The translations under genes and the position numbers were made by a program. A model generated the notes under the pieces. That model had not been told where the DNA came from, searched no databases, and saw only the letters and a program-made list of their open reading frames with translations. Shown piece after piece: positions 12,701 through 50,796 of a stretch of DNA of 64,000 nucleotides. The stretch is from Macrostomum hystrix (Eukaryota > Animalia > Platyhelminthes). Where the stretch lies: assembly GCA_950097015.1 (NCBI GenBank), contig CATNEN010000001.1, positions 16,182,001 to 16,246,000 on the forward strand, read 5' to 3'. How positions within the stretch are numbered: position 1 is the first letter of the stretch; each line of letters starts with the position of its first letter.

Positions 12701-13097
12701 GTGTATTTTACTTCCCCTCTGGATCTCTCAAAATTTAGTTGGGTTAGACCATGAAATTCCCCAGGCTATTGTATTGTCTACCATTACGGTTGTAGACAAT
12801 AATCAGTAAATATATTTCTAATTGCCATTGTCAAAGACAGTTGTTGTTGCTGTTTTGTTGTTGTATTGTCAATGACACTGATCCCTTTACAAATTTGGTA
12901 ATATACGTTTATAATTTTGATTAAGGGCAATCATTCTAGACAGATAAATACTCGTATGTAAATTGGATTTAAAACATTCCGAATTTCTTCCAGATATTCT
13001 CCATGAACACCTGACGCCCGGTACACGGTCAGGTGCGTCGAGAAATGGAAGCTGCGGATGACATTGATATTAGTGTCTATTCTAAGATTGCTCCTCA

Positions 13098-15421
13098 TGA
13101 TATAGCTGCGGGTTTGCAATCCGATGATCTGTCCTCGTGAAGGAAAGGAGTGTGGGGATGGCGATAGAGTCAGAAGTTGTACCGCAAAGTCTCGCGAGTT
13201 GCCGCGGAAAGAGGGATGAAGGGAGAGATGAAGGGAGAGACAGTGGATGCAGGGAGTGGTCCTCTCGGCCTCAGGCTGGCCAGTCACACTCAACCCATAG
13301 GCCACAGGCATGACTGCCGTGCCTACCCCAAGCAGTGCTCGAAACCGGCTAAAAGTCTAAATAGATGTCGGACTACCCGCAAGCGGATAGGACAGGGCTA
13401 GGTAGCCTACTGCCATCAGTAGCATGTTCGTAACTGACTCCTAAACTCGGTAGCAGTGGTCGACTCGGCCTAGGCTCTTGTCTTAGAAATGCGGAAAGGC
13501 TATCGGCAAAGCGGAAAATGATCTAGGGTAGCGCCACCACCCAATGCGCCTACGTTGCCACCGCAGACATTTGGGGACTTGGGTCCCCGGAGCTCGCAGC
13601 TCCTAGTTTGTCACACAGATCTTAGACAAGCCGAAAAATAGAGCCTTCTGTAACTTCCGTTTTAGACTAGGGTGAAAACCCCAGAATGGATCGAGACACG
13701 CCTCACCAGGGGATTCCTGAATTTGCGCTACAGTGGTCTAGAAAGGTGGTACTCAGAACCTGAAAGAGAAACCCATAGCCAGAATCCTACTCATGGGACA
13801 TCAGACACATTCTGTACATTAGGCTGCAGCCTACACATTAGATAACTAGCAATCCGAGTCTGTGTGAGTTGAGGAAAACAGAGGCAGGAGAGGTTAAGCT
13901 GAACACTGGCTGAGTGATTATGCAAGCGTGAGATTAATTGAACATCACTCTCGTTCCCGTGGCCGCAGGTGCGAAAGGGGGACAGCGGGAAAACTCCATT
14001 GGAAAGGGAGCTCGACACGTACCTTGAACCCACCCAAGAGGGAGAAGGAAAACCGGCCAAGGATTCCCCCAACCCCCTGGAAAGGAAAATGCACATGCTA
14101 CCCTCCGCATTTACTTACAAATCCCTAGCTCCATATAACTCTCATGCGCGCTCACAGTTGTCTTCCTGCCGCAGCTTTCAGCTCGGCATCACCAGAGCCC
14201 ACCCCCTAATGAGTTAGCCACTCATGGTAGAGGGCTGTCTAATGAGAAAATAAAGAGGAAATAACAGCATGGCGGAAAAGATTTAAATTGTTATTAAGTT
14301 TGGCCTAATGTTTTAATAATTGGCGAATGAATAGTCCGTATATTAAGCCTCGAATCCTAAGCCCGTGCCCACTAATAGCCGCCTAATTAACAGAAAGCCC
14401 CTTAGGAGCAATAATTGCAAAAACCACTGCGCGGGTTACTTAGCTGAAGTCGCTTCGGCTGCGTGCTGCAATCCCGTTGTTCTCGGGGAAGAGGATGGGG
14501 TAAGACAGCAAAGGCCGGGAAGGGAAAGGTGCGGCGAGTCGGCAGGGGCCAACACGCTTGGAGCTCAAGGCTCAATTTCAACGGCTCACCTAAAGAGGTG
14601 GCTCGCGCTCAGGGGGAATGGGGACAGGCAATGGGCCTGCGCTAACTGTGGAGCTATGAACTCTAGGGTCTATGCCCTAAGTGGGTCCGGAAAGGTGCTC
14701 TGGGTCCGGTGGGAGTCCGGCCCGGCAAAAGTAAGTCCGGCAGGGGAGAAGGGGAAGAGCCGGTGGGAGAAAAAGGTTGTAGAGGGAGCAGCGCCGCGCG
14801 CTTGCTTAAATAGGCCTTGCAGCACGCCAACCCCGACATCCATCAAAGCAACCCACATTCGCGCCCGCCTGTCAACGGGGAATCGAAGCGACGACAGGCC
14901 GCCCCAATTGCCCAATGAACCGGCGGCGGGAAACGACAGGTGCTCATCGAGAGCAGCCATCGGCAGACGGCCAACAATTGTTACTCCGCCGGGACAAAGG
15001 AAGCGCAGGCGCCGACCTGCCTACAGTGACATTTACAAGTATCTACAAGGGAGGAGGTCATAAAGTCGAGCTGGGCTCGAATACTGTAAAGAAGAGGGGA
15101 CATGAAGAATTTAATGATCACTCATAACGCGCGAGTGAGCCCCTATATCTGATCGCGGTTTGGAGGGGAATTATGACCTAAACTAGTTCATACAGTAACA
15201 TTATGGCCGCGATCAGTCATTCCTACGGGGAGTCTAGGCAACTCCGGAGAGAGAGGATTCGACAGCTACTTGATTCACCGCCGCCTCAAACCCGGCCCTA
15301 AGATTAATGATCTTGTTTTGTGGCCAGCTGCTATGTGGGTCGCAATTATTAGTTACTTAAAAATTTGAAAAATTATGCTGGCTCACATTCCCGCTCGATT
15401 CCCGCAGCACACTCCACATCA
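13098..15421 (-). repeat. 3' LTR (2324 bp)
   Basis: Near-identical to 21707-24034 (a few substitutions, one 3-bp and one 1-bp indel). Confidence 0.95.
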
Positions 15422-15440
15422 CTCCACCTTCGCTCACTTT
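15422..15440 (-). other. Polypurine tract
   Basis: Minus strand aaagtgagcgaaggtggag abuts the 3' LTR. Confidence 0.75.
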
Positions 15441-16169
15441 CACGTAAGACACTTACGTGCCTACTGACAGTAGTAGCGGGGTGTCTCGAGAATCGAGGGG
15501 ATAAATAAAAATTACCTACAACATACTGTAGAGAACCCTAGGAAGAATTCCGCTAGAGAAGAAATCCTAATGCGTACGTACGTACGGCTATAAATAGATT
15601 GGTGCGAGAGTATAAACGGTCGGCGCCCCTAGCGACTAAGGGATAGAGTCTTGAGGGGAGGTGGGTGCGCATTCCGGTCGCGGCGATGTTGTTCTCGTTG
15701 CCCAGGGGGTGCCTCGTCCCGGCTCGCCTTCTTCTCCAGGTGGCTGCAGCTCGTCCCAGTTCTCCCTGCCCGGCTTGGTCTCGGTTGCGCAATCCTGGGA
15801 GGCCCCGGCCGTCTTCTCCTTGAGTCCGAGGGGTCCGGCCGTGCTCTGCCCAGGTGGGTCCAGGTTGTTCAGCCCGTTTGCGCCCTTGCCGATCCTGCTG
15901 CCGGGCCTTGGTAGCCTCTGATTCGCCGCGCGCCCGGGTGTTTACAGCTGGCCGTGCCCGAAAATGTTCGCCGGGCTGGTTGCCGAGCCGTTGCGCGCGG
16001 TCCAATTGGCGCTGCAGCTGGTCGCAGCCGGAGAAACCCGCTGCTCAGGCCGCTCAGTTACTCTGTTGCCGGCCGCGGTATCTCCTCACCGAAAAGATCA
16101 AGGCCCCACTAACTAAACTACAACTATGGCCCCCTTACTCATGGAATTTCCCACAATCCTTCCCGAGCC

Positions 16170-16225
16170 TTCCTATTGGCTGGCGCCCCGGCCACCAAAA
16201 CCCCTAAACAAACTATTATAAAGAA
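16170..16225 (+). promoter_or_regulatory. Putative promoter of the antisense gene
   Basis: attgg (reverse CCAAT) near 16176 and tattataaag near 16214, about 80 bp upstream of ATG 16295. Confidence 0.5.
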
Positions 16226-16294
16226 CCACTTGATGCTCCATTAACTTCAGGCCTGTTATTTTTTGTAAAATCTCTGTTCATTTACTAATCGAAA

Positions 16295-17005
16295 ATGCGC
16301 CCAACTAACGCTGGCATTGTGCCTCTTTACGAAGCTGCTGACATGGCCCTGCCGCCGCCACCTGGAGAAGAGAGGTGAGTTACATTGCTTCCACTCGGCC
16401 TCCCAAGGCCGGTTATTGAGGGGCGATAATGAAATGGTTGGATAATAATTAGACTAGCTAGGATAATTATAGCAGTTCCCGGCACCCCCAACCCGATTCT
16501 TATCTATGACTGATCTTAACCCGAACCCAGATCCCTCAGCCCGCTAAGTTGAGAAATCCCAGTGAAACCCTAAATTAGCATTAGATCGAGTTTAATTTGT
16601 ATAAAAATTTCGTGAATTTGCTATCACCGTGATTGATTACCACCGTCCTGCCCTCCTACTTCCAGAGATGTCGTACCGCAGCCACCTACACGGCTTACCT
16701 TCGTCATTAGTAAGTCACCATGAATTGATATTTAACGCTTCATTCTATATTAGCCACCATTTGATCTGATTTCCGGGTCAAGCATCACCGAAATTCCACG
16801 CTAACCCTCAGCCGTAGTTGCTTAACTACTTCCTTCTTAATAAAAAAAATCCATCCCATCTCCCGCAGACTTTGACGTGGCGCCCAGCCGTCTCGCGGCT
16901 GGTGAGCTAAGCGAGGTCCTGGTGGGCCCCATGGGCTGGGCCGCGGCGGCCGGCCTGTTAATGGCCGCAGGAATGATCATAATGGCTCGCCTTCGCCGGC
17001 GCTAA
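16295..17005 (+). CDS. Predicted 3-exon 86-aa protein with C-terminal hydrophobic helix and polybasic tail; join(16295-16374,16666-16709,16869-17005)
   Basis: Donors GTGAGT and GTAAGT, pyrimidine-rich acceptors ttccag and ccgcag, phases 2 and 1 join in frame: MRPTNAGIVPLYEAADMALPPPPGEERDVVPQPPTRLTFVINFDVAPSRLAAGELSEVLVGPMGWAAAAGLLMAAGMIIMARLRRR. Confidence 0.75.
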
Positions 17006-18132
17006 CGAAAGGCACAGAGAAAAGAAGGTGCCACCGGTGGTTGGTACAATTTTTATAAAGACGACTGCCAGAGCCCCCTCCCCTCTGTTAATAACCCAAT
17101 TCTACCTGACACGCATTTCCCCACATTTATTCAGTGCCTAATCGTTAATTTTTTTCTTACCTTTCATTAAAATTTGCCTACTTATCATTGCTCACCACAA
17201 CCACCTCCTTTGCTTATTATAGAAATTGTACATAAATATATGCATTTATTCAGTGTGGAAATTGGTGTGTGCCGTTTACATGATTTCTCTGGCTGGGTTT
17301 CCTTGATTGAAAAGAACGGTGTTATTCATACTTAGAAAGCCCCAAAGGACAACGCGTCATTCCCAGTTTACATCTAAAGCGAGCTCCCTCAATAATAATA
17401 AGGTGGACATGGAACTAATTTGAAAATTTACAACAGAGAGGCTTGCTTAGGTGCCCGCAGTCTAGCTGGCTCATCCGCGTAAACAACCCTGTCCTTTTCG
17501 CTGTGCCCTCACATTCACTTCTCACCTCCCTTAGAAAAGGAGCCACCATTGAAATAGCTCGTTTCCTCCCGAACCAATAAGAAAGCTTCTCTCAACCTGA
17601 GCTAAAAGCCTGTCAGTTCCTTGTTCAGCCACCCACCTCATTCCAAACTTAGAGTGCCCATCATACCACCCCGCTCACTTTGGCGGGTTGGTATCCCTCC
17701 TAATATAGAAATTCGTCCCCAGATGAACCAACTCCACGGCCCACCCGAAACAAAGCGATATAGAGGGTGCCATTTACAATGTGGTGCGAGTAATATTAAA
17801 TGTCTAAGAAAAGAAGGGTGCACGCCCTAGTCTGCTGCAGTTAGAAATTATCTCAAGCGAAAAGTTTACTAGGGGAATTTCACCCCACTATGCATGTTTT
17901 TGGGTTTTTGACTAAAAATTATAAGAGTTTTTAGAATAAGATTTTTGTGCCAAGACGGCTTTAAAAGAGAGAAAGGAAAAGCATGCACAGTAGGAAGAAA
18001 AGCAAGAGGTGTGCGGTGCGAGCTGTTAATAAAGGGAAAAGGATGGAGAGAACAAGGGAAGGATTTGGTGGGTAGGGCTTTCCATAGATGCTTTTTCGCG
18101 CATTATCGTGCCCTTACTCGGATCCTGGGCCC

Positions 18133-18717
18133 CTATTCCTCGCCTCCATTCTTGATGGGAGTACTCCCTACCAGGCTCTCGCCATCATCTTCCCCTTCCA
18201 TCTGCCTTACCATTTGGCCGAGCGTGCTGTCGCCTGGTGGCAGCTCCTCGATGGTCGATGCTTCTACTGCCCAGCTTCTCCATGGCGTAGAGGCTAGTCC
18301 GGAAGATTGCCTCCAGACGGCTTCGCCAATCCGCGATGTTACCAGCTGGTGCTCGAGATCCCACCTGCCAGGGATCCGGGTAGCCTGTAGCCAGGACATA
18401 AGGGCTTCGGGCACTGCCATGCCCCAGTCTTCTGGCGGGCTGTATTCGGGCCACCGGAGATTCCAAGGCAGGGCCTCCTCGTCCTCACCTCTTGGCGGGC
18501 TCGGGTCTCGCTCTTCGACCCATGCCTGCGCCAACCACCGGGCTTCGGCTAGCCTGCATGCCAGGGCGAGATCTACTCCGGCCTGTGCCGCACGGCCCAA
18601 CGCAGGGAGTAGCCACAGGCGGACCATAATCCATGTCCTCCTGCCGGCCAGCTCTCGCCGATAGTCGGTGGCGACCGTCTCCAGCCACCAGGCCACAGTG
18701 ATGCTCAGGCCAGCCAT
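18133..18717 (-). CDS. Orphan 194-aa Trp-rich ORF3 of the gag-pro element
   Basis: ATG ORF downstream of protease, preceded by a long polypyrimidine tract and AG acceptor at 18790-18791. Confidence 0.65.
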   Translation of the reverse strand: MAGLSITVAWWLETVATDYRRELAGRRTWIMVRLWLLPALGRAAQAGVDLALACRLAEARWLAQAWVEERDPSPPRGEDEEALPWNLRWPEYSPPEDWGMAVPEALMSWLQATRIPGRWDLEHQLVTSRIGEAVWRQSSGLASTPWRSWAVEASTIEELPPGDSTLGQMVRQMEGEDDGESLVGSTPIKNGGEE

Positions 18718-18846
18718 GTCGACAATTTTTGTTAAAATGAACTGACTGCGTCCCTTCTAAACTTCCCGGCTCCTCCACTAACCTCCAGTCTAAATATCCA
18801 CAAGGGGGAGAGGGGGGGAAGAAAAGGGGAGGGGGGTTCCTCAGCC

Positions 18847-19392
18847 CTAAAAGGCAGGCTTCCGCCTGAGCGAGAAGGGAATAGACTGGTTGTAAATGAT
18901 TAATTGGCGCGAGTCAAAATCAAGGATGGCATGGTGATGAGCCAACCAGGAGGCGCCTAGAAGGGGAGAGCAGTCGCCCTCGACCACTAAGAATAGCGTG
19001 TCCAACGCTTCGGCGCCAACCTGCAATTTGACTTTGACTTGCGCCTGTGCAATTATAGGGGTGCCATTATATGCGAATAAAGAGAATTGAGGGGGTTCGA
19101 AATGATAATGGGAGATGATGGATGACATCGAGCCCGGGAGCACATTCACCATTGACCCAGTGTCGATCAGGAGGTCAAGGGGTGCTCCGTCCAACTCCAA
19201 GGCGACCCACACCTCACTGAGCTTCTCAGAGCGGTTGGGGCGGGTACGCACTCGGGTGGGGACTCGGCCGAGTGAATTCACTCGGACTTCGATGAGGGAG
19301 GCATCAACGGGGGGGCCTCGATCGCCCGAGCTGCGTGAGGCGCCTCCGGATAATCGGGCTGCCTCCAGTCGGCGGCCCCACTCCCGTTTCCC
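18847..19392 (-). CDS. pro: Retropepsin aspartic protease, read by -1 frameshift from gag
   Basis: LLIDTGS active site and LLGASWL motif; slippery G GGA AAC at 19386-19392 in the correct phase; stop follows the protease domain directly. Confidence 0.9.
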   Translation of the reverse strand, partial: GKREWGRRLEAARLSGGASRSSGDRGPPVDASLIEVRVNSLGRVPTRVRTRPNRSEKLSEVWVALELDGAPLDLLIDTGSMVNVLPGSMSSIISHYHFEPPQFSLFAYNGTPIIAQAQVKVKLQVGAEALDTLFLVVEGDCSPLLGASWLAHHHAILDFDSRQLIIYNQSIPFSLRRKPAF

Positions 19393-20351
19393 GCGGCATA
19401 GTTCCCACGGTACTTCTTCCGCGGCCCCATTGCTACCCTGGGGTACCACTGGTGCCCGGACAGGTGCGGATGAGGCGGGCGGGCCGGGGTTGGTTGTGAT
19501 TCGCGCAGCTGCCGCGTGACTTCCGCGAGCTGCTGGGAAACTTTGGCCAATTCCTGGGCCAAGTGCTGCTGCTCACGGCGGACGGCTTGAATCTCACCGG
19601 GGGGTTCTTGCTCCTCGGCTAGCCCGGCCCTGACCTGGCGCACTCGGCGACGGGGGTCGCGCTCAGCGGCCATCTCAAATGCCTGGGTGGCGGCGCGCAG
19701 CTCAGCGGCAGCCGCCTCTACCGTGGCGAATTCTATCCGCATCATGGGCGCCAACACCTCCGGAGGGGCCGTGATGCCTTCTAGGAAGGAGGCCAGGAGG
19801 GCTTGTTCAAAGGGTGGGCCGCGGCCATTGGGGTTGACCTGGGTGGCCACAGATCGCAGGCGGTCAGCGAACGAGGCGTATGACTCGCCTCTGTCCTGCT
19901 TAAGATTGCGCCCGCAAAGTAGCCGGGCATAGGGTGTGCAGGCGCCGCTGAGGGCCTCGGTCAGGTCTTGCACAAACCGCGGGTAGGTCACTCGGCGCGG
20001 TAGGCTCATGGCCTGGGTCAAGGGTTCGCCCCCTAAGTGAGCCAGGAGGGTGAGGATTTTCTCCTCCTCCGTCTCAAGACCCTCGGCCTCGACTTTCAAA
20101 TTAAACCGGCGCAGCCAGCCGGGAAATGAGTCCTTCGCCGACTCGAACGGCTCTAAAGCAATTTTTACTCGGTGGGTCCTAGCCCGTCGCGGCTCTAAGC
20201 GCTCCATCAGGGAGGCTAGGCGCTCCACTGGGTCTGCCGGCTGGACTGCCGCAGTTGCTGGGGGTTCGGCTCGCGCTGCTGCTGCAGCGCGGCCTCTCGG
20301 TGGGCGGGCACTGCCAACGGCCTCCACCACCTCATCCTCCTGGTCAGACAT
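19278..20351 (-). CDS. gag: Ty3/gypsy-type Gag (357 aa from MSDQEDE), no CCHC knuckle
   Basis: Capsid-like motifs PFESAKDSFPGWLRRF and LKQDRGESYASFADRL, followed by a coiled-coil-like stretch. Confidence 0.85.
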   Translation of the reverse strand: MSDQEDEVVEAVGSARPPRGRAAAAARAEPPATAAVQPADPVERLASLMERLEPRRARTHRVKIALEPFESAKDSFPGWLRRFNLKVEAEGLETEEEKILTLLAHLGGEPLTQAMSLPRRVTYPRFVQDLTEALSGACTPYARLLCGRNLKQDRGESYASFADRLRSVATQVNPNGRGPPFEQALLASFLEGITAPPEVLAPMMRIEFATVEAAAAELRAATQAFEMAAERDPRRRVRQVRAGLAEEQEPPGEIQAVRREQQHLAQELAKVSQQLAEVTRQLRESQPTPARPPHPHLSGHQWYPRVAMGPRKKYRGNYAAGNGSGAADWRQPDYPEAPHAARAIEAPPLMPPSSKSE

Positions 20352-20794
20352 GTTGACTACAGAGGAAATGAGGATTTTGCGAATTAAGAGGGGGGGTTTT
20401 GTCGCTAAAGCAACACTGGGGATGAGAAAAAGTGAGCTAAACGGGGTGCTGCACACGGCAGTGGCCGCGGAGAATGAGCAATTGAAAAACCGGCCCTCGC
20501 GAACAGAGACTGCGATGCAGCGGCCGAGAAAGCGATAAAGGAAAAACTGGTAGGAGAGAAAAAAAGGCCCGGGGCCCTGGCTAGCTCTACTTCCAGCCTT
20601 GGCTTCCGACAACTGCTTGCGCGCACTCGAACTTGGGACATAGGAGTCTAGGTTTTAACTTAGCACTCATTCAGCAACCCTATAGCGGACTGTTACACTA
20701 TAGGTACGGCGGGGCCAGTACTACTGCTGGCAGCGCCTGCAGCAGCCTATCGCCCTACCTTGGAAAGTACACGACTTCAATAAGTTACTCAAAG

Positions 20795-21331
20795 AAGGCT
20801 AATCCCCGATTCGCTCAGAGGGCCCTTCCCGGGGGGGTGGCCGGGGGCTTCGCCTCTGCGATTTACAAGGCTGGGAAGTCCAGGTATTTTACACCTGGAG
20901 CCTCGCTTCGGCTTAGGAGTCCGTAGGGCAAAAGCCCGGTTACTGCGTTTAGACTACCCTTCAGAGAGCTTCTTAGAAAAGGACGTGCCGACCGATTTCT
21001 AGCCTATCCCCAAGGTCGGCAGTTTCAGGGCGCGGGCACGGGTGTCGTTAGACTCCCTCAGGGTCCCGACCCTTAACTATTCCGCCCCTAAGTTAGACTT
21101 AGTCAAAGTTACGTGGCACCTTCAGAATCAGGTACCTGAAAGCGGGCCTTGCGCGACGCCCAAGGAAAGGCTAATCCCCGATTCGCTCAGAGGGCCCTTC
21201 CCGGGGGGGGTGGCCGGGGGCTTCGCCTCTGCGATTTACAAGGCTGGGAAGTCCAGGTATTTTACACCTGGAGCCTCGCTTCAGCTTAGGAGTCCGTAGC
21301 TTAAGCCCGGTAACTGCGTTTAGACTACCCT
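20795..21331. repeat. ~165-bp direct repeat pair in the 5' leader (20795-20960 and 21167-21331)
   Basis: aaggctaatccccgattcg...tagactaccct occurs twice. Confidence 0.9.
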
Positions 21332-21685
21332 CGCCTAGAACAATCACGCAGGAAAAACCCCGCAGACAGTCCCCGACTCCTGCAGTAGCCACATAACCCG
21401 AAGACACTCTAGCATGAAGTCTACTCACACAGCCTACTCATAGTAGAAAGTCACTAATCAGAATTTTTAGAAACTCTAACAAAACCTTACATTAAAGTCC
21501 GAATCAAATTGAAACTGTTCAAAGAAAATTAATTGACAGTTACTCGGAACTGAAGTCCAGTCTCCCGAGATAAGATTCCGGCATACGGATAATGAAATCT
21601 AGAAGGAGCCCTTACGGCTAGCTACTACAGAAATCTGCAGCGCTACTAACAATTGAAATTCAAGTTCGTTTCGCGCCCTTTCTAG

Positions 21686-21705
21686 ATCCCACCTCGATGC
21701 CACCA
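21686..21705 (-). other. Primer binding site, tRNA-Leu-like
   Basis: TGGTGGCATCGAGGTGGGAT, 1 nt after the 5' LTR. Confidence 0.75.
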
Positions 21706-21706
21706 T

Positions 21707-24034
21707 TGATATAGCTGCGGGTTTGCAATCCGATGATCTGTCCTCGTGAAGGAAAGGAGTGTGGGGATGGCGATAGAGTCAGAAGTCGTACCGCAAAGTC
21801 TCGCGAGTTGCCGCGGAAAGAGGGATGAAGGGAGAGATGAAGGGAGAGACAGTGGATGCAGGGAGTGGTCCTCTCGGCCTCAGGCTGGCCAGTCCCACTC
21901 AAACCATAGGCCACAGGCATGACTGCCGTGCCTACCCCAAGCAGTGCTCGAAACCGGCTAAAAGTCTAAATAGATGTCGGACTACCCGCAAGCGGATAGG
22001 ACAGGGCTAGGTAGCCTACTGCCATCAGTAGCATGTTCGTAACTGACTCCTAAACTCGGTAGCAGTGGTCGACTCGGCCTAGGCTCTTGTCTTAGAAATG
22101 CGGAAAGGCTATCGGCAAAGCGGAAAATGATCTAGGGTAGCGCCACCACCCAATGCGCCTACGTTGCCACCGCAGACATTTGGGGACTTGGGTCCCCGGA
22201 GCTCGCAGCTCCTAGTTTGTCACACAGATCTTAGACAAGCCGAAAAATAGAGCCTTCTGTAACTTCCGTTTTAGACTAGGGTGAAAACCCCAGAATGGAT
22301 CGAGACACGCCTCACCAGGGGATTCCTGAATTTGCGCTACAGTGGTCTAGAAAGGTGGTACTCAGAACCTGAAAGAGAAACCCATAGCCAGAATCCTACT
22401 CATGGGACATCAGACACATTCTGTACATTAGGCTGCAGCCTACACATTAGATAACTAGCAATCCGAGTCTGTGTGAGTTGAGGAAAACAGAGGCAGGAGA
22501 GGTTAAGCTGAACACTGGCTGAGTGATTATGCAAGCGTGAGATTAATTGAACATCACTCTCGTTCCCGTGGCCGCAGGTGCGAAAGGGGGACAGCGGGAA
22601 AACTCCATTGGAAAGGGAGCTCGACACGTACCTTGAACCCACCCAAGAGGGAGAAGGAAAACCGGCCAAGGATTCCCCCAACCCCCTGGAAAGGAAAATG
22701 CACATGCTACCCTCCGCATTTACTTACAAATCCCTAGCTCCATATCCATACTCTCATGCGCGCTCACAGTTGTCTTCCTGCCGCAGCTTTCAGCTCGGCA
22801 TCACCAGAGCCCACCCCCTAATGAGTTAGCCACTCATGGTAGAGGGCTGTCTAATGAGAAAATAAAGAGGAAATAACAGCATGGCGGAAAAGATTTAAAT
22901 TGTTATTAAGTTTGGCCTAATGTTTTAATAATTGGCGAATGAATAGTCCGTATATTAAGCCTCGAATCCTAAGCCCGTGCCCACTAATAGCCGCCTAATT
23001 AACAGAAAGCCCCTTAGGAGCAATAATTGCAAAAACCACTGCGCGGGTTACTTAGCTGAAGTCGCTTCGGCTGCGTGCTGCAATCCCGTTGTTCTCGGGG
23101 AAGAGGATGGGGTAAGACAGCAAAGGCCGGGAAGGGAAAGGTGCGGCGAGTCGGCAGGGGCCAACACGCTTGGAGCTCAAGGCTCAATTTCAACGGCTCA
23201 CCTAAAGAGGTGGATCGCGCTCAGGGGGAATGGGGACAGGCAATGGGCCTGCGCTAACTGTGGAGCTATGAACTCTAGGGTCTATGCCCTAAGTGGGTCC
23301 GGAAAGGTGCTCTGGGTCCGGTGGGAGTCCGGCCCGGCAAAAGTAAGTCCGGCAGGGGAGAAGGGGAAGAGCCGGTGGGAGAAAAAGGTTGTAGAGGGAG
23401 CAGCGCCGCGCGCTTGCTTAAATAGGCCTTGCAGCACGCCAACCCCGACATCCATCAAAGCAACCCACATTCGCGCCCGCCTGTCAACGGGGAATCGAAG
23501 CGACGACAGGCCGCCCCAATTGCCCAATGAACCGGCGGCGGGAAACGACAGGTGCTCATCGAGAGCAGCCATCGGCAGACGGCCAACAATTGTTACTCCG
23601 CCGGGACAAAGGAAGCGCAGGCGCCGACCTGCCTACAGTGACATTTACAAGTATCTACAAGGGAGGAGGTCATAAAGTCGAGCTGGGCTCGAATACTGTA
23701 AAGAAGAGGGGACATGAAGAATTTAATGATCACTCATAACGCGCGAGTGAGCCCCTATATCTGATCGCGGTTTGGAGGGGAATTATGACCTAAACTAGTT
23801 CATACAGTAACATTATGGCCGCGATCAGTCATTCCTACGGGGAGTCTAGGCAACTCCGGAGAGAGAGGATTCGACAGCTACTTGATTCACCGCCGCCTCA
23901 AAACCCGGCCCTAAGATTAATGATCTTGTTTTGTGGCCAGCTGCTATGTGGGTCGCAATTATTAGTTACTTAAAAATTTGAAAAATTATGCTGGCTCACA
24001 TTCCCGCTCGATTCCCGCAGCACACTCCACATCA
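21707..24034 (-). repeat. 5' LTR (2328 bp)
   Basis: Near-identical to 13098-15421; minus-strand TATTTAAG at 23417-23424 is also kept in the divergent LTR near 63490. Confidence 0.95.
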
Positions 24035-24914
24035 CTCAGAAGTTCGAGCGTCATTAAACTGTTGCCGTACTGTTTAGTTTAGCGGCATAATCACTGCAAT
24101 ATAACTGTTCGGCGTGAGAAATAAATTCGAAAATAAGTTTTTACTAATTAATAGTCACAACAGGCATTTTGTACGAAAGAAAAACTCAAAGTGCCTTTAT
24201 CAGGTAAAGGCGGGCTCTTTTATTATTGCTCTTTTTGCTTTCCCATTTTTATTTCTGTAATTTACTGTTGGTCTGTTCAATTTCACTCTTCTTCAGTTGC
24301 TTTGCATTTAGTACCCTGAAGATATTTAATTCTACAAAACATTCCGGTTTGAGTGCAATCCAAATCCTATCCCAGGCCTATCCCATATGTATACAGATAC
24401 TTGGTGTTTACTTTTTTTCTCCCGCTATGCATCCTTTTACTATTTATACAGAAAATTAAACGTTCTTTGTGCGGCAATTAAGCAGCCACAGTCAGACAAA
24501 TTCTTTATACTGAACTGCGTTAGAAATTTATATTTATTTTCGTTGACTCTTACTTCTTTAATTTCGAAATTTAAACGTTATGCAGCAAAACATAATGCTG
24601 ACACAGCTAGTGCTTTCACCTACGATCGAATCTTTTGGGATCGTTTTCCTGAAGGCGGCTCATCTATGTCTACAATACTTAATAAGTTAATAATACTGAG
24701 CTGGCACAACTGAGCCAAAAAATCTTGTCAACTTGCGCATCAGAGGCCGCACTAAGTGCGCAGTTGCTGTTAGAATTTAAGAAATGAATCAGCGCCAAAA
24801 TTCATAATGCCGGTCGCCCTCACAATTGAGCGACCTGCTTTACGAGCGTAAATCGACGACTCTCCAAATCACTCCGCCATTATGTAAACACATTACCATA
24901 GAATCACATACCAC

Positions 24915-28891: not shown

Positions 28892-30346
28892 CTAGTCTCG
28901 AAGCCATGGGTTCTTCACAAGATCATCATTATCGATACCTCTACCAGTCGTATAGTCGAACGTCAGTTCTGTGCCCGTTGCAACATATTTATTTGTCACG
29001 AAATAAATGACGGGTCGCAGCCCCTGGTCGATAATAATGAGCTTTGCTTTACAGTTAGGAGCAGTAGAAGAATGGTTCAGGTACCTTCCCAATCCGTCAC
29101 TGTTGCTGGCGTCAATTACCCATAATTTGCCGTTAACTTTAAACTCAAATAGCATCCAGTCGGAGTTAGGTTCACATTCGCGTCTAATCGCTTCCTGTTC
29201 GTTCAGCAGGATTCCGGCGAATTGATCGACAAACGCCCCCGCAGCTAGGTTGATTCTCGCAAAGGCGCCCAGTCCCTTCTCGCCCGCAGGTGCAACAGCG
29301 ATCGCGGTGTCTGTCTTCCCGTTGATGCCCAGTATGCGCTCGGTTGTATCTCTAGTGGATGTCGGGGGACGATAATCGACACTAGATCGGCTGAGCCTCT
29401 GAGCCGGCCTCTTCTTAACGGTCGGGTCAGGCAAAGGCTGTGCGGGGGTGTAGTTAAACACGATTTAATTTGTTTTTTTTTCATGCTTCTAAATCGCCCT
29501 TTTCTCCATCGCCTCTCTCACATTTCACTTGCTTGCTGACATCTCGTTTGCATCTCATCTCACTTAATCGGCCTCTACTTTTTACTCCCTCTTAATCCTC
29601 TCCTCTCTCATTAAGTTACTCAAAGAAAAACGATTACAGAAAAGGAAACTTTGCCCCAAAATCAGCTTTATACAGCCACACCATCTAACCGCACTCAATT
29701 GATTGACGAACCTCTAATGGACATACTGCTAGGGCGATTCGTAAAGATTGATCCACGCGTGAGTTGCCTTCGCCCTCTTCCTCGCTGTCGGAGAAGGATA
29801 ATTCGACGTTGACCTCAGGGACAGCGCGTTTGTTAGTCTGAAAAATTAAACATTTTTAATATTTTCTCATGCAGAAACATGAGAATGTGCATAACAGAAA
29901 TTAAGACGCGGGGCCTACATGCAAAGATTATAGTGGGAGATTATAGTTGCAGAGGGGAGTAGGAGAATACTTAGAAGGACAAGTTATTGAACAGGCAGGT
30001 AACATACATTATCATTCACCTGAAGTTCAGCCGTTGATGGAATTGCGCAAGAATGTCGCTTGAATCGGACTATAAGTCCCGGGCCAGTTTCGCAGGTCAC
30101 CCTGACCTGATCAGCGCGTTGGGAAGTCTGGCAATGTATGCGTGCAATACGTGAGTGTACAATAGAAATATAACAAAAGAATAAAGGAAAAGTTGTAAAC
30201 TTTTTACAATCTCAAATAATTTGCTGCCTCTGAATTCTCACCTCATTGAGGGCGGTCGATACGCGCTTTAAACGAATTTTTAAACCGGGCACTGCTGTGT
30301 CTGCACTTCCGCAGTCAGATATTAGCCACTGATCACTTATATCCAT
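28892..30346 (-). CDS. SETD8/PR-Set7 (KMT5A)-like SET-domain protein, predicted 289 aa; join(30346-30242,30127-30020,29837-29727,29437-28892)
   Basis: GEKGLG, GRYLNHS, ELTFDY and C-terminal NPWL motifs; three upstream stop-free phase-0 exons with GT/AG; minus-strand AATAAA near 28790. Confidence 0.85.
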
Positions 30347-31163: not shown

Positions 31164-33919
31164 CTAATCAACACCAGAGAGAGGAATCACCAGCCATGCC
31201 TTTCCGGTCTTGCGCGGGAACAGAAAGCACTTCCTGTGGGGAGTGCCAGTAACAAAAGATCGTGTTTTACAATAGACTCCGATACCCAGTTTTGAGGACG
31301 GATATGGATAGTCATACAAGTCCTTTTGCAGCGACAGAATATTGCCAGTTACTTGGTCACCAAGAACAGAAGTAATCCGAACAACTGAGCCATTCACGAT
31401 GCAACAGTTGTCGGGCATCTTAACAGAGTACTTAATGGGCTTAATTGGGTTGCTGACTAGTAAGTCGCGAAGTGAAAGCATTTGATTTAGCAAGTAAGAT
31501 GATACAAAGCGCGTTACTCGAAGGCGACCCTTTAAGTGAGAGAGGTAGTTCTCATATGGAAAGGCCGAAAAGTTGGACACATTTCCACGTTGCCTCGCGT
31601 ATTGAAACAAGTGCAAAAGAACGTGAGCATTGTGAGTCATGAAACTGTTGCCGTACAGTTGAGCTGCGTCATACACAAAAAGTTTCAAGGCAGATTCAGC
31701 GGCATCAAGAAGTTCAGGCTGTGGGCTATCAGAGCAAAGAACATAACAGGCAAAGTGAAATAGAAGAAAATGCCTGTACAACTCTGTTGGCAGAAATTTG
31801 CGAAAAAAATACGGGCCCACATACAGAGTCCACGTGCGGAACTCGCTGGCTTTGAAATGTCCGAGTTCTCGGTCGATTCTCCGAGGGCGTCTTTGGAAAT
31901 TTGTCGGTGTATATATAGCACGTGATTCGGCAAAATCAGAAAGTGCGGAAACTTGATCCGGCCTAATTTTGCGCCGCCGTCCGTCATCCACCGCAAAGAG
32001 GAAGGTGAAAAGACGCCTAGCGACGCCTAGAAAGAGCAGGTGCATTGGCTCCGGTGGGCAAGCATCAGGTAGTTGCAAGCCTGGCAGTGACAGGAGCGGA
32101 CTTGGTTCATGCCGCTGGTTGGATTCCCTGCAGTAGTTGTTGGCGATAAAGACTAGTAATAATAATAATTTATTACACCTGCCCCAATCGACAGCACAGC
32201 CGCAGCTAATGCGCGGCGCATCTGAAGGCTGCGTACGGCTGTTCAGTCCATGGACTGGGAGGACGCCATACACCCACCTTCAATTACCCCAGCTAATGCT
32301 GGTACCTATTTAACAGCTGGGTGAACCGAAGCACTGCAGAGTTAAGTGTCTTGCTAAAGGACACAAATTTTTTCAGTGGAGTCGGGAATCGAGCTATTGT
32401 ATATTATTGTATATTGAATATTGTATATTTTATATTGTATATAGCAAGTATGTGAATAATTTTTTAGATTTAAAAGGACAGCCATTATATAGACAGTCTG
32501 AATCGGAATCACATTTCTTTAGTTGCCATATCCCGATACAGCCATTTGCATATTTATATGATTAACTGATTCACGTATTAAGACAACGTCAGGTCAGGTT
32601 CGTAGACATGTATAAAACATGTCAGATATCCTGCCATGTAGGCATATACAGATGTATAAGCTGGTATACAAAATTCGCAAAAGCACACACACATACACAC
32701 AACCCCATGCACACACACGCACCTATTAAACCGGTAATCCTCAGCTGTGCGACACTCTCCGACTTCGACAGGGTAGACTATTCGCCGGTCGACCGTCTGG
32801 GCTACCACTCTGCAGTAGGGGCAGCCGTGATGTGCGTTGTGGCCCAAAGTTGCGGTAATGAAGGTCCGCGCTGGCGTGTCGCAAATGAACGTGATGTTCC
32901 TGATGTGGATTAGCACCCCATCAACTTCGACAAAGTCGGTCATGAAGGACTGCAGCTCATTGATGAAGTCGGCCAGGTACTCGGTAAGAGGTGGTTTACC
33001 CAACCCAGCATACACAGCAACAGGAAGTGGGCGACAGAATCTCGAAAACTTAACGATAATAGGCCATGCCGCGTAGCTTGACGAATTGTAAATCGGCATT
33101 CCGTCAATGCCAACATCAATGTCCAGTTCCAACCTTGCTCTGTCATTCTGGGTGGCTTCCGGATTTCCAAGATCCAACATGCCGCCGCGAATCAGGAACG
33201 CCAGGTTCGAAGCAATACCGATGTAGGAAAAGTGTCCACTACCCATGGTGTACTTTTGTATTTGTACTGCTTCAGCCGAAGGTTCTTTGCGCAGACGGTG
33301 CACTGTTCTTGCGACCGGCAGGCCTCGGCAGACTAGAGCATTGAGCAGGAACTGCATCGCTCGATGTGAGATGTTGTAACGAACGAAGAATATTAGAAGC
33401 TCCTCATTCAGGCTCTCCAATGATGGCTTTGCTGTTTGGCCTGGGTCCCCATCTTCCGCATCTGTTGACAAGTGATCGGCGTAGTCGAACTCATCAGCCT
33501 CACTTTCGTCGAAAGCCTCGTTAATAGCTGATAAATGCATGGGGTCACAGGCATTGACACCGGCACTGGTAGAATCAGGCCGCGAATCCTCAGGTGGAAT
33601 GAGGCTTGCGCCATCTGCATGGGAAGATGCAACCTCCTGATTGAAAATAAAGAGGAAAAAAAGAAGACGATGAAACTGTGCATAAAATTCGAGGCAATCA
33701 ATCAAACCTATCACCCTGTCAATCCTGCCTCTGTCTGCCCCACACTCGTCAAATTTCTTTACAAAATTGCATGAAACTTAAATAGAATCTCAATAAGAAT
33801 TGAAAACTCACTTGGTCCATTACTACATCACTGTCCGCAAAGTCAAGTAGGTTCTTTGTGAACCAATTTTGAAACTTTCATCGTGGGTTCGTGTCACCTT
33901 TAGTCCGTCTTTTAGACAT
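31164..33919 (-). CDS. EnSpm/CACTA-type transposase, ~661 codons; join(33919-33812,33636-32723,32127-31164); in-frame TGA at codon 14
   Basis: GIDGMP...WPI, ICDTPAR...GHN...GCPYC, EPMHLLFLGV, FKASEFRTW, HNAHVLLHL and SAFPYENY motifs; intron phases 0 and 2 are consistent. Confidence 0.88.
32157..32395 (-). mobile_element. SINE in transposase intron 2
   Basis: Same family as 1575-1800, with B-box remnant and (taa)n tail. Confidence 0.8.
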
Positions 33920-34054
33920 TTTGTGAGTAAGTGATGGATATGAAAGGCTAATAGATGGGATATATTGAAAAAATTGCTGTAAATTAACCCGGGAAAATAA
34001 TATTACTAGAGCCTAGAGGTCTGTAAATTACAATTCATTAGTTTACTAAAATTG

Positions 34055-34285
34055 CTAGTTTACTTGCCTTTGTCGAGACTCGAGTCGAGTTGGCTCTCAG
34101 CTCGGCTCGGCTCGGCTCGCTCTTGGCTCGGATTGGCTCTGTCGGATTCCGCGCGGCGCGGGCAAGTTTTCATTGGCTTGTGTCCAATAAAGCTTTGAGA
34201 AGGCGGGGACCCACCTGTGGCATATCTGCACGTATGGCTCATATATAAATAGATGATCAATCGTTGTTGAGCAATTTTATAGTTG
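34055..34285 (+). promoter_or_regulatory. Promoter cassette, copy 1 (between divergent transposase and ORF 34353)
   Basis: attgg boxes, aggcgggg GC box, tatataaa at 34242; duplicated at 39939-40145. Confidence 0.65.
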
Positions 34286-34352: not shown

Positions 34353-34805
34353 ATGAATAGCAACAGCAGCGACAGCAACAGCATCAACAGCAGCCAATGC
34401 CATGTCCATGGCCTGGATGTTCATGACGATGTCAATGAGTTCAAATTTCATTTGTTCCCGGCACAGTTCCGGGCGAACTTTCTGGCCAATGCCACCACCA
34501 AACTGGATGAGGCCATCCAGTCATGCCTCGTCGCTGCGGAAGAGATGGCGGCGACAGTGGCCTGGACGCCCGCACGGCGCCGGGCACAGGACGCGCTGAA
34601 TGAAGCGACGCGTCTTATGAAGCTGGCCATGATTCGGATGGCCAGAGCTCGCCGCATAGCGGCGGGCCTGGACCCATATGTGAGTAGTCGCTTTTGAATA
34701 TTATTATTATTAGAATATTTATTAACGCATCTGATCTGATAACCGAGCTAATAAGCTAAATGAAACTGAAACCCATCTTTTATATCGCAGCCGGGCGTCC
34801 TGTGA
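34353..34805 (+). CDS. Orphan ~113-aa helical protein; join(34353-34679,34791-34805)
   Basis: aaaaATG context after a TATA box, GC-rich ORF, donor GTGAGT at 34680 and acceptor tcgcag at 34790. The unspliced ORF ends at 34697. Confidence 0.6.
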
Positions 34806-34891: not shown

Positions 34892-37800
34892 TGTCAAGAC
34901 TCAAAGGAAGCTTCTTATAGCGAATATAACGAGTGTATTTGGGTTAAAGCCGCGCGTGCGAATAAGCCGTGTAGTCACTCTTACGTTTAGCTTGGGGGGG
35001 GTAAAAGGGGTGCAACAGTTGAGGCGAAGCTTAGCTTAACGGGACCATAGACAGAAGAAGAAGAGAGAAAGCCGTTAGGGCCGGGCTGCTTTGACACTGC
35101 ACAACATGTCTCCCTCCAGTCAAATGAAACAAAACAACGAGCGCATGTGGCTATTTTTTGTGGCTATGTTAGTCTTATCGGGAGGGCAACATATCAACCG
35201 TCACAGTGTCAGGGTGTGTATCGGTCTGGCTGTCGCCGATTTCGGTCACCCCTGCGCGGAACTTGATCTGCCACCGGAGCCGGTGGTGTCGGGGTTTCAT
35301 TGGGAGGCATGTCTGCCGGCGGCTCGACTTTCGTCCTCGTCGTCCTCAGAAGTGCGTGAGAGCATCGGGGCAATCTGATTGTTGCTTGCCAGACGCAGTT
35401 TGTCGTCCGTCAGCAACCAGGATGTGTTGCGCCCTTGGGTCATGAGGAACTCTGCGCCTCGGGACGGGGTGTGGTCGGTGGCCTTGTATACGACCTGGTC
35501 ACCTTGTTGGAAAGCCGAGACAACAGGTACGCGAAGTCGTCGACCGAACACGAGCTCAGCCGGTGTCTTTGACCTTGCACCTGACGAGTTGCGGTGGTGA
35601 AGCAGAACCTTCTGCAAAAACGCAATGAAGTCAGAGTGGGTCAGTCTCTGTGTCCAGGCCTGCAGGGCCCTCTTGACAGTTTGGACTGCTCGCTCGGCCG
35701 CACCATTAGATTGTGGCGAGTAGGGAGGGGTTTCCATCTTTCGGGCGCCGTTGGCATGCAGCCAGGACAGCAGGGCATCAGACGTGAATTCCGGTCCGTT
35801 GTCGGAGACCACCACCTCTGGGACTCCAAATCTCGTGAATACAGTACGTAACGAGCAAATAACCCTGTCTGCCGTCCTGTCGCGGGATGGAAAGGCTTCA
35901 ATCCATCCGGAATAGGAATCCACTACAATGAGAATGTTGCCCACCTCGGGCACGAAGGCCCAGTCCATGTGGATGCGCTGAAATGGAGCATCAGCAGGTG
36001 GCCAAGCATCTCGGGACTTCTGCAGTCGGGGCCGCATGCAGCACACTGCCGCACGAATCGTTCCACGTCGCGCTGCATGCCGGGCCACCAGCAGGACAGC
36101 TCCAGGAGGTGGTAGCTGGCAGAAGTACCGCTATGAGTGTCGTGAATCGCATCGAAGGCCTCTTTCCGGAGACGCGGAGGTATGAATGCGCGCCGGTGCA
36201 TGTAGAGGAGGCCGTTCTCGATTGTTAGAGCTGCTGCGTTTCTCTTGAAAGCGGCCTCTGCTTGTGTGCAGTTATGCCAGTCGCCATTGCGTACGCGACG
36301 TATGATGCGCTGTAGCAGTGGATCAGAATCAAGTTCGCTAGCGATCCGTCGAGGATTGATAGTAGGGGATTCAAAGGCAACTGAGTTGATTGCCTCGAAT
36401 GCGTCGGCCGGGTCTTGACTGTCATTATCAAACGGCAGACGAGAAAGCGCATCGGCATGCGGAATGCGCGATCCGGGAACGTAGACCACGCTAAAGTCAA
36501 ATTGCATCAGGTAAAGGGCCCAGCGACTGATTCTTGCCGATGAACTCATTGGTATGCTGCCACCGAAAAGCCGTAGAAGAGGCTGATGATCCGTCTGTAC
36601 CGTAAATCGTCGGCCTTGGAGGTAGTGTTTCAGGCGACAGACGGCCCAGAAGATGGCGAGTGCTTCCCGTTCAATGTTGGAATAGTTAGTCTCGGCCTTG
36701 GACAGTGTCCTAGAGATAAAGATTACAGGGCGTCCTTCCTGGGTAACAACGCCTGCCAACGCTCCTTTAGAGGCATCTGTTGTGAGGGTCACCTCCTTCT
36801 CCAGGCTGTACGGTTGTACTATTGGTCGTGATGAGATCTCCTTCTTGAGATTCTCGAAAGCGCGAGCACATGCTTCAGACCAGACAAACGGCGTGGATGC
36901 CTTGCGCAGTTCGTTCAATGGGGCGACCTTGGCGGAATAGTCAGGAATCAAGCGGCCGAAGAAATTCACCAGACCGAGAAATTGCTCGATCTCCTTCTTG
37001 GTCTTCGGTGTCGAGATGTGGCGAACTTTGTCCACGAGCTTATCATCGGGCCGAATTCCAGCGGCAGAAATTTCGAATCCAAGGAATGAAATCGAATCGC
37101 AAATGCCTGTACATTTGTCTTCATTGACCGTTACCTTTTTTTCGGCCAGGCGCGTTTTGACTGCTTTCAGACGCTTCTGGAGTGCTTCAACGTTCTCAGC
37201 ATAGACCATGATGTCGTCTTGATAGATCAGTAGTCCCTTCAAGTCGGAGAGGATGCTCTCCATTGTGCGTTGAAAAATGAATGAAGCGTTTTTCATGCCC
37301 ATCTGAAGGCGTTTGACGCGGTATAGGCCTCGCGAGGTATTGATGATAGAGATGCCTTGGGCGGATTCGTCCAGCTCGATCTGCCAGTAAGCCGACCTCA
37401 GATCAATCTTGGCAAACTTCTTGGCATTCTTTAACTTGCCAAAGAGGTGCTCGATGCTTGGAATAGGGTATGACTCTGGCTTTATTTTGTCGTTCACATG
37501 GACCTTGTAATCGGCGCACATGCGCAACGTCCCGTCCTTCTTCTTGATCCAGACGACCGGAGAAGCGTTGCTCACAGGACCCTCCACAGGCTCGATGATG
37601 CCAAGCTGCTGCAGCCGGTCCAACTCTGCGTTGACTTGCTTCTCTAGTGCGATTGGAACCGGACGAGCACGGCAGAACTGGGATCGAGCGCCTTCAACCA
37701 GCTCCATCTGTGCCTTGATGCCCTTGATGGTGGGCAGCGTTGTAGCTGCAACTGTGGGGCTCGGAGCTTGAGAGTTGGTGTGAAAGAGAGAGTCGGAATC

Positions 37801-39193
37801 TAAAAGATCACGGCCAAGGAGGCCGAACGGCTTCAAAGACGAAACCACGACGAATTCGGCGGGGTGTAACCTACCCCGCATCTCGACGGTAGAGCACAGC
37901 TTGCCGAGAGTCTTTAGGGTGTGGCCGTCGTAGGCCTCGAGGCGTCGGTGACTCTTTTGCAGTGGGGGCCTGCCCAGAGACTCCCAGATTGTGCTAGAAA
38001 GCACGGAGACGGATGCACCGGTATCCACTTGCATTGGTACCTTGGCGCCGTCTACAAGAAGTGTCTCAGATGCAACTTCGATTGCGTTGACCAGATCAAC
38101 GTCCATAAGATGCAGGATCTTCGAGGGCTCGGGCGTCATCGATGCATCGGATGGAACATCCGCGTGATGTACGGATTTGCTAGTCAGAGCAGAGCGGCAT
38201 ACGGCAGCAAAGTGGTTGCGCTTGGAGCACTTGGAACAGGTCTTGCCATATGCCGGGCACTTGCCTGCGTGATGGGATCCGCCACAGTACTTGCAGCCCT
38301 CGATGCGCTGACCATTGGAAGTTGGCCGTCCACCTTTGGAGTAGTGCACCGATTCGTCAGTGGCCGCATTATGTTGGGCTGGCGGCGACAATGGGCCAGC
38401 CGGGCCTACCGGGGGCAACGAGTTACAGGTTTGAACAAACGTGTTGATCTGTTCACAACTTCGAATGAGGTCAACAATCTCCGAGATTGTCTGATCCTTG
38501 GTTTGCATTGCACCGAGAATGCGCCGTTGATGCTCAGGGTTGTACAGTCCAGAAATGAGAGTAAGCCGCACCAGCTCCTCTGCGGGACTGGCGCAGTCCT
38601 TCAGAGAGTCAAAGGCGCAGTGCGTTGCTGCTTTCCTCAGGCGAGCTAAATAGTCTGCTATCGGCTCAGCAGCTTTCTGACGAATTGAGAAAAAGTCGGT
38701 TCTTTCGGCGACAATGAGGCGCTTCTGAGGTTGTAAGTAGGACACCAGGGCTGTCTCGATCTCTTGGAAGGTCAGCTTGTCGATCTCCTTCGGAGCGACG
38801 AGATGAGTCAGCTTCTCCAAAGCAGGCAGTCCGCAGGATGCCAAAAAATTGTCTGCGACTTGTCGGGATTCGGTCGAGTCGGTCCACTTCTTGGCGCGGG
38901 CCAGAGCATTGAAGGCCTTGAGCCACATCAGTGCACGGTCGGCATCGCCGAGAAAAAGGTCACCAAGCCGCGACGCCATTGTCAAGACTCAAAGGAAGCT
39001 TCTTATAGCGAATATAACGAGTGTATTTGAGTTAAAGCCGCGCGTGCGAATAAGCCGTGTAGTCACTCTTACGTTTAGCTTGGGGGGGTAAAAGGGGTGC
39101 AACAGTTGAGGCGAAGCTTAGCTTAACGGGACCATAGACAGAAGAAGAAGAGAGAAAGCCGTTAGGGCCGGGCTGCTTTGACACTGCACAACA
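34892..39193 (-). mobile_element. Compact Ty3/gypsy LTR retrotransposon, Mag-like
   Basis: LTRs 34892-35106 and 38980-39193 (2 differences seen), imperfect 5-bp TSD aataa/attaa, PPT ggagggag, PBS TGGCGTCGCG. Confidence 0.92.
35297..38979 (-). pseudogene. gag-pol: Single-ORF gag-pol, frameshifted near 36030 in the integrase zinc-binding region
   Basis: Two CCHC knuckles, VDTGA protease, YQDD RT, TDAS RNaseH; integrase core (HMDW, SDNG, AER) continues in another frame. Confidence 0.9.
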
Positions 39194-39938
39194 ATTAATT
39201 TATAAATAACTGTATTAATGTTGTGTTCAATATTTATGCACAAATACGCACGCGCACATTTTTAAATAAATAAATGTTTAAAAAATACACATTTACACAA
39301 AAAATACACAAGCCATAATTTTTCATCGCCGTCTTCAATTTTTTGTGTGCCACTGGCACTGGTTGGTTGGATTTCCGTATAGTTGTTGACTTGACAATAA
39401 GGAATAATATTGTATATATACAATACATAGTATTAGTATGTATGTGAAACCTTATTGAGAAATCAAAGGACATCAGGACAATTAAATAGTCTGAATCAGG
39501 ACAGTCTGAATCGGAATCATAGTTCTTAATCATAGTCGTACAAATCGTGTATATGAGAGACGGTTACAAGACAGCATACATTGTTGATAACGCATTCCTA
39601 ATTATTTAGCTATTTAGTTAAAAAAAACACATGAAAGAAATTAATTCTGTTGTCAGCCGCTGTAGGCTCAGCATATACATAGTAGGCGTGTCTAGCAATT
39701 CTAGTAATCATGAGTTCTGAGTTCTGACCGGCAGATTGTAATGATATCATTGCAACGATTGCTAGATAAGCTAGACTATCATGCATATTGTAATATTTGC
39801 ATCGCAACGGAAAAAAAGAATCACCATCAACGCTAGTAGATGGTGATCAACGATATTAAACGCAAACTACAGTAAATACCCGGTAAATTACAGATACTTA
39901 AGGTAAGTAAATTACAATAAATTCAATTACTACAAAAG

Positions 39939-40145
39939 CTAGTTTGCCTTTGTCGAGTCAGCCGTTCGAGCCGTTCGCTATTGGCTCAGCTCGCTCTAAC
40001 CGGATTGGCTCTGTCGGATTCCGCGCTTTTGCATTGGCTCTTGTCCAGTAAAGCTTTGAGAAGGCGGGGTCCCAACGGAGCATATCTGCACGTACGTAGC
40101 TCGTATATGAATAGTTGATCAATCTTTGTTGAGCAACTTTATAGT
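39939..40145 (+). promoter_or_regulatory. Promoter cassette, copy 2
   Basis: Homologous to 34055-34285; ends about 70 bp upstream of ATG 40212. Confidence 0.65.
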
Positions 40146-50722: not shown

Positions 50723-50796
50723 TTCCTATCCTCCGAATCAGGCCGAGGAAGATCCCTTGGAGAACAAGAAAAATAAAATAAAATAAAGGAAAAGGA

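Follow-up and report, generated by a model that had tools for sequence, protein, structure and literature searches.

The Ty3/gypsy element at 13098-24034 of the window (the whole 64,000-nucleotide stretch of DNA analysed here) very probably carries a separate two-intron gene on the strand opposite to gag, a judgement that we draw from its letters. A sequence-only reading had proposed this gene for an in-frame product of 86 aa, and its exons and introns were confirmed, with no strict model of this kind arising in 6000 shuffles. The slot is a known one for antisense genes of LTR elements; the cargo, of what is probably a real gene, is unusual. The account that we prefer, tentatively, is that of a separately promoted antisense gene whose product would be tail-anchored and cytosol-facing on mitochondria or peroxisomes, and would serve as an accessory adaptor rather than as a fusogen.

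Self-comparison of the window shows 2.3-kb direct repeats at both ends of the element, which differ in nine columns (5 substitutions and 4 gap columns) and are accompanied by a 4-nt target duplication, CTCA; the paralogous empty site is close to 53350. Minus-strand orientation follows from the positions of the polypurine tract and of the primer-binding site, which we take to be tRNA-Leu-like (Table 1). With its near-identical LTRs, the element is a young insertion. Six-frame translation of the interior gave no reverse transcriptase (RT), RNase H or integrase (IN), and the neighbouring gypsy element matched in gag only and not in pol, so that the element, a Ty3/gypsy LTR retrotransposon by its LTRs, target duplication, primer-binding site, polypurine tract and gypsy-type Gag and protease, is non-autonomous.

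Table 1. Positions of the features of the LTR element and of its antisense gene in the window.
Feature	Positions	Strand	Details
3' LTR	13098..15421	-	2324 nt, TG...CA ends
Polypurine tract	15422..15434	-	purine-rich run adjoining 3' LTR
GC-rich block (65%)	15636..16129	.	between 3' LTR and antisense promoter; common to divergent copy
Predicted promoter	16175..16222	+	reverse CCAAT box (ATTGG 16175), TATAAA 16217; motif match only
Exon 1, coding part	16295..16374	+	80 nt, GC 60%; in-frame second ATG 16343
Intron 1	16375..16665	+	291 nt, GC 44%, GTGAGT...CAG; branch-like TTGAT 16633, pyrimidine tract
Exon 2	16666..16709	+	44 nt, GC 52%
Intron 2	16710..16868	+	159 nt, GC 41%, GTAAGT...CAG; branch-like TTAAC/TTAAT
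Exon 3, coding part	16869..17005	+	GC 67%; hydrophobic helix, RLRRR tail, TAA
AT-rich convergent 3'-end zone	17126..17250	.	ATTAAA + at 17166; AATAAA - at 17126, 17245
ORF3	18133..18717	-	194 aa, same sense as gag
Aspartic protease frame (DTGS)	18847..19290	-	-1 to gag; stop at end, no RT behind
gag	19278..20351	-	357 aa
Primer-binding site	21688..21705	-	TGGTGGCA...
5' LTR	21707..24034	-	2328 nt

The protease frame matches Pfam PF13975 at E 0.00075, under the curated cut-off. For Gag, 11 relatives at E<=0.001 were found among 1.84 billion representatives; the three named clusters among the ten looked up come from Macrostomum lignano (two) and a barnacle (one), with 24-29% identity, and point to an invertebrate as the probable host. 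A protein search of 7994 candidates gave no relative of Gag, 402 metagenome pattern matches and 23 viral contigs gave no confirmed Gag-related locus, and an exact-sequence look-up in the protein collection found none of seven window proteins. ORF3 is tryptophan-rich and has coding-like codon use. It has no relative among 737 candidates of a protein search, no Pfam match at E<=1 and no usable match in the Atlas, and its single-sequence structure prediction (pLDDT 43.5) is unusable. This sense ORF comes first after the enzyme genes and fills the usual env slot, in an element that has no RT, RNase H or integrase, and the earlier assignment of the antisense gene to the env position is thereby lost. 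The antisense ORF instead sits in the stretch from the enzyme genes to the 3' LTR, as additional ORFs of Ty3/gypsy elements do.

Two further regions of the element deserve description. The 5' leader contains a 167-nt duplication (20795-20960 versus 21167-21331, 96%). The GC-rich block next to the 3' LTR contains two overlapping minus-strand frames of 163 and 101 aa, neither with a usable ATG; in the divergent copy, 15933-16119 could be aligned with 26 differences and 2 gaps. The block could be a decayed sense ORF or a piece of a two-way promoter, but related contigs have single-base indels at 15614-15704, a sign that coding is not maintained in that part. A 21-nt inverted repeat (90%) pairs 15730-15750 with 16351-16371 in exon 1.

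When spliced, the three coding parts give 261 nt, i.e., 86 codons and TAA, and the gene overlaps no sense ORF. Both acceptors combine a pyrimidine tract, CAG and a branch-like motif, and the other intron-bearing genes of the window have donors and acceptors of the same type. Skipping of exon 2 leads to an immediate stop in frame, so this exon is needed. GC content moves in steps along the gene (60/44/52/41/67%) and falls to 38% past the stop codon. From the element's edge to the predicted promoter is a distance of about 800 nt. TATAAA at 16217 and ATTAAA at 17166 are present as the sequence-only reading had listed them, while its CCAAT box is reversed, reading ATTGG at 16175. The two minus-strand AATAAA copies of the AT-rich zone sit within a perfect 13-nt direct repeat. 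Two details count against the gene model, namely an AATAAA within intron 2 at 16839 and a short upstream ATG at 16233. A hairpin at the start of intron 1 was not above shuffles (z -0.94).

In the 6285-nt interior, the plus strand has the motif GTRAGT twice, and both occurrences are the predicted donors. A strict gene finder, which demanded an ATG, two GTRAGT introns and a product of 80 aa or more, gave precisely the 86-aa model. It found none in dinucleotide shuffles, whether of the whole region (0/3000) or in blocks (0/3000), and a single one, this gene, in 226 real 1.1-kb windows read on both strands; its thresholds were set with the gene already known, so the shuffle counts overstate the rarity somewhat. 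Relaxed models appeared in 2/600 and 4/600 shuffles, none of them with a hydrophobic segment, and in 7 of the 226 real windows. Codon use was compared with stop-free base shuffles by means of a codon table trained on other elements in the window. Of the six frames, the predicted one scores best, and 21 of 5000 shuffles reach its score. By exon, the score was reached by 15/3000 shuffles for exon 1, 806/3000 for exon 2 and 109/3000 for exon 3; taken alone, exon 2 thus has no significant codon signal and exon 3 a weak one.

A search of public sequencing runs listed no RNA run with this sequence and one run of contigs (share 0.06). These contigs were matched at an 85% threshold; 16670-17046 is uncovered, which is no evidence against the exons there, since diverged exons would drop below the threshold. 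None of the 22 contigs matched to 12900-24200 contains a spliced joint, and as a set they are uninformative on splicing. One contig, from a divergent copy, matched 16384-16423, extends 25 letters upstream of this match, and diverges past 16423. By-eye comparison shows donor 1 unchanged and two letters missing just inside intron 1. The last 18 letters of exon 1 differ at five positions, four of which are third codon positions (chance 0.022); this exon end (13/18 identical) is less similar than the first 40 intron letters, which are at least 85% identical by the matching threshold. This comparison with a divergent copy, of the kind proposed earlier, has the retained donor, the third-position differences and the missing intron letters in favour of the gene and the less similar exon end against it, all at the exon 1/intron 1 border of this single contig. 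Its depth is about 8 (bin mean), like that of the contig following the divergent LTR at 61909-63997, and by this depth it may belong to the same subfamily. That LTR is 83% identical, and the window ends before its gene region. Judged by the exon 1/intron 1 border, the gene is present in at least two clearly different subfamilies, which suggests retention.

Homology searches bear on the exons separately. Pfam at E<=1 gave no family for exon 1, and exon 3 had no homologue among 276 candidates in a search against longer proteins. The look-alikes of exon 3 are generic helix-plus-basic-tail anchors only (Pfam PF00746, E 0.48; Atlas score 0.85), which indicates shared architecture and not kinship. 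A 24-letter exon 3 pattern found in two metagenome contigs was dismissed as chance (63-70% GC, with only 24-29 letters in common).

The 86-aa product has the PPPP run, the Ala/Gly-rich helix and the terminal RLRRR that the sequence-only reading had listed. Residues 1-57 are acidic (net -4) and contain 10 prolines. The helix spans residues 58/63-81, and 58-81 are 24 uncharged residues in a row. Its hydropathy is moderate (GRAVY 1.68-1.87; best 19-residue Kyte-Doolittle mean 1.83), and its summed biological-scale value, +0.59 without position terms, is borderline for insertion. The tail that follows residue 81 has five residues, four of them Arg, and a charge of +4. There is no cysteine, and N-terminal hydropathy stays below 0.8, with no hydrophobic signal. 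A single C-terminal helix, a short tail and no N-terminal signal are the marks of a tail-anchored protein, and the earlier reading as this type is supported. A helix that ends so close to the C-terminus stays in the ribosome until translation terminates, and tail anchors are therefore inserted post-translationally; a helix five residues from the C-terminus presents the textbook condition for this. Among mammalian tail-anchored proteins, the mean tail charge is 0.21 for the ER, 1.12 for mitochondria, 2.5 for proteins shared by mitochondria and peroxisomes and 6.03 for peroxisomes (PMC5450235). By these mammalian rules, the +4 tail lies between the shared and the peroxisomal means and far from that of the ER, and the product resembles tail-anchored proteins of mitochondria and peroxisomes in its moderate single C-terminal helix and short, strongly basic tail (PMC5450235). 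Tail-anchored proteins are a host targeting class and not a family, and the product differs from those described there in having no evident folded cytosolic domain (PMC5450235). A by-eye check for BH3-like and LIR motifs gave no fit.

Plant gypsy elements and Botrytis Boty are known to carry antisense ORFs in the stretch from pol to the 3' LTR (PMC7264820, PMC11963269, PMC8365987), the named cases being maize Grande gene23, rice RIRE2, the Retand TRP28 ORFs and Botrytis Boty brtn (PMC7264820, PMC11963269). Like them, the 86-aa gene is antisense to gag in the 3' interior, and the internal promoter shown for Grande gene23 is predicted here (PMC7264820). The plant and fungal ORFs are mostly larger and encode nuclear or predicted DNA-binding proteins, with no membrane anchor reported in the text available (PMC7264820, PMC11963269), whereas the present gene has two introns, a C-terminal helix and a host element that lacks RT and integrase and has invertebrate Gag relatives. 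The word "intron" is absent from the available text of the two plant papers (PMC7264820, PMC11963269), and a review among these sources calls for a search for antisense and spliced transcripts (PMC7264820/PMC11963269/PMC8365987). Among vertebrate retroviruses, HTLV-1 HBZ is a spliced antisense product and HIV-1 ASP a transmembrane one with a proline motif (PMC10186651). Compared by features and not by sequence, the gene thus shares a spliced antisense message with HBZ, and a membrane product and proline motif with ASP, but these have their start within the 3' LTR and overlap with genes of the sense strand, while its predicted promoter is some 800 nt into the element and it has no sense overlap (PMC10186651). 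Rotifer LTR elements have small sense ORF3s with membrane segments (PMC5408684). In the literature searched, from which subscription papers were largely absent, no gene of an animal-type LTR retrotransposon is at once antisense, spliced and membrane-anchored, and "antisense" does not occur in PMC13524379.

Elsewhere in the window, 43679-52700 is an autonomous gypsy element, whose Gag is 25% identical to that of the element at 13098-24034. The two share the first 8 letters of the primer-binding site and the first 7 of the LTR, and the autonomous one has an orphan ORF3 of its own (318 aa); it is possibly a kind of helper, and is too distant for a parent. It contains no convincing antisense spliced gene (one 51-aa model). 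Two plus-strand genes with introns, at 34353-34805 and from 40212 onward, are preceded by related promoters (33944-34283 and 39829-40145, 72%). They stand head-to-head with ORFs of CACTA-like type at 31164-33777, which match DUF4218 weakly, and a gypsy element with 215-nt LTRs (34892-39193) is inserted between the two genes. We considered the gene at 34353 as a second antisense LTR gene and ruled it out, since it lies outside these LTRs. A SET-domain ORF at 28892-29464 (PF00856, E 9.8e-13) adjoins the CACTA-like ORFs and is possibly transposon-borne. Finally, the insertions at 13097 and, for the divergent relative, at 61794 each lie in a copy of one tandem repeat unit of 6.5-6.9 kb, about 120 nt apart in unit coordinates, and may reflect a target preference.

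How far the product should be read as a membrane protein, or as a protein at all, depends on several competing explanations. That the motifs fell into place by chance, with no gene at all, is the least probable of them: the product is short and has no homologue, no transcript was seen and the null thresholds were chosen afterwards, but the unique donors, the strict shuffles, the codon use and the donor kept in the divergent contig all speak against it. It is very improbable that the gene came in by a single capture of a host or DNA-transposon gene, promoter and introns included, and merely rides along without use to the element. The non-autonomous element has a long interior, gene capture by LTR elements is documented (PMC7264820), and intron genes with similar promoters occur in DNA-transposon-like sequence of the window; against this stand the presence in at least two clearly differing subfamilies and the want of a matching source gene among the 276 candidates for exon 3 and in the window comparison. 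The spliced antisense RNA might instead act as RNA, in self-regulation via double-stranded RNA, with an incidental or decaying frame of 86 codons, as suits the non-coding antisense RNAs made from internal promoters of micropia (PMC7264820) and the part of intron 1 that is better kept than the exon 1 end in one divergent contig. Since three exons share one open frame with favourable codon use and a third-position bias, we find this improbable. A small regulator, real and translated, whose last helix is a weakly hydrophobic interaction helix and whose Arg tail serves nuclear or nucleic-acid binding, is unlikely but remains a real rival because the hydrophobicity of the helix is borderline. Most antisense products known from retroelements are nuclear, e.g., Grande GENE23 (PMC7264820) and HBZ (PMC10186651), and the helix weakly resembles (9/14 identities) the clearly non-membrane helix of the intron gene at 34353, outside the LTR elements. 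Of 20000 whole shuffles, however, 144-482 reach that likeness, as do 682-1679 of 20000 local ones, and its E value for the window is 2.9; moreover, 24 uncharged residues followed at once by four arginines fit a regulator poorly.

The sequence-only reading had also raised cell-to-cell spread and a likeness to FAST fusogens. On this view the product would be a FAST/sORF2-like cell-cell fusogen with its N-terminus outside, which would let particles move from cell to cell although the element has no envelope gene. The sORF2/FAST-like proteins of insect MDG1-group retrotransposons and the reovirus FAST proteins are, like the 86-aa product, small, with one helix and a basic patch, and sORF2 likewise occurs in env-less LTR elements (PMC11952523, PMC2646142), in 7 of 22 lepidopteran cases downstream of pol (PMC11952523). 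The element retains gag and protease, and a spliced gene would escape a six-frame screen. Set beside the screening criteria of PMC11952523 and bioRxiv 2025.03.14.642691, as far as given there, the length falls within 60-210 aa (86 aa, or 70 when the second ATG is used), and four of the five tail residues, directly behind the helix, are basic where at least three K/R within 15 residues are asked for. The screen expects a single helix, N out/C in, by TMHMM and Phobius; the hydropathy profile of the product has one of moderate strength. The longer, acidic and proline-rich N-terminal part has 57-62 residues before the helix from the first ATG (41-46 from the second), against an ectodomain of 10-50, and from the first ATG exceeds the typical length. 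The first ATG puts Arg at position 2 and the second ATG puts Ala there, so neither start gives Gly2 or the N-myristoylation motif MGxxxS/T, which is absent also from 2 of 6 Drosophila sORF2s (PMC11952523). There is no cysteine, and the protein ends with its basic patch, with no cytosolic endodomain bearing an amphipathic motif; reovirus FAST endodomains have 36-97 residues, and deletion of that of p14 progressively abolishes fusion (PMC2646142). All 105 insect candidates are in forward orientation (PMC11952523), where sense, unspliced coding on the genomic RNA is expected and the present gene is antisense with two introns. By myristoylation motif, endodomain and orientation, the product is not an sORF2/FAST member. 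The suggestion of FAST-like spread is accordingly not supported, a fusogen of any such kind is quite improbable, and the caveat voiced at the time, that the Gly2 site and a long endodomain are missing, was correct.

The tail-anchored adaptor, which we continue to prefer, would work as follows. The 5' LTR would drive transcription of the minus-strand genomic RNA; the introns lie backwards on this RNA and would not be removed, and their intactness in a young insertion is explained by this logic if the RNA is transcribed as we infer. The TATA box of the separate promoter would give a spliced message of roughly 0.5 kb ending in the AT-rich zone, which also bears poly-A signals for the sense strand. 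The protein would enter an organelle membrane tail-first and post-translationally, likely in mitochondria or peroxisomes, with its proline-rich N-terminal part turned to the cytosol as an adaptor. Most speculatively, the N-terminal 57 residues might tether a host factor or the element's own Gag particles to the membrane, which would let the element act on the host cell when genomic RNA is not made; a role in particle trafficking is possible. It is rather unlikely, though conceivable, that an invertebrate retrotransposon lineage which has lost RT and IN retains, as a membrane device serving its particles, a tail-anchored microprotein from a spliced antisense gene, which would dock them at germline organelles or pass them from cell to cell. 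If true, this would be a class of env-independent accessory genes that escapes six-frame screens for small fusogens.

Screens of LTR retrotransposons for small membrane genes translate six frames and therefore cannot find spliced genes; the antisense gene exemplifies what they may miss, being compact, with introns of host type and a membrane tail. Until expression and conservation of all exons are demonstrated, it is one well-formed gene model, and as such a small, testable case for the role of antisense accessory genes in retrotransposons. If it is expressed and conserved, the antisense slot, so far known for nuclear and enzymatic proteins, would gain microproteins with a membrane anchor as cargo, and an animal-type element would have kept such a gene while losing its polymerase.
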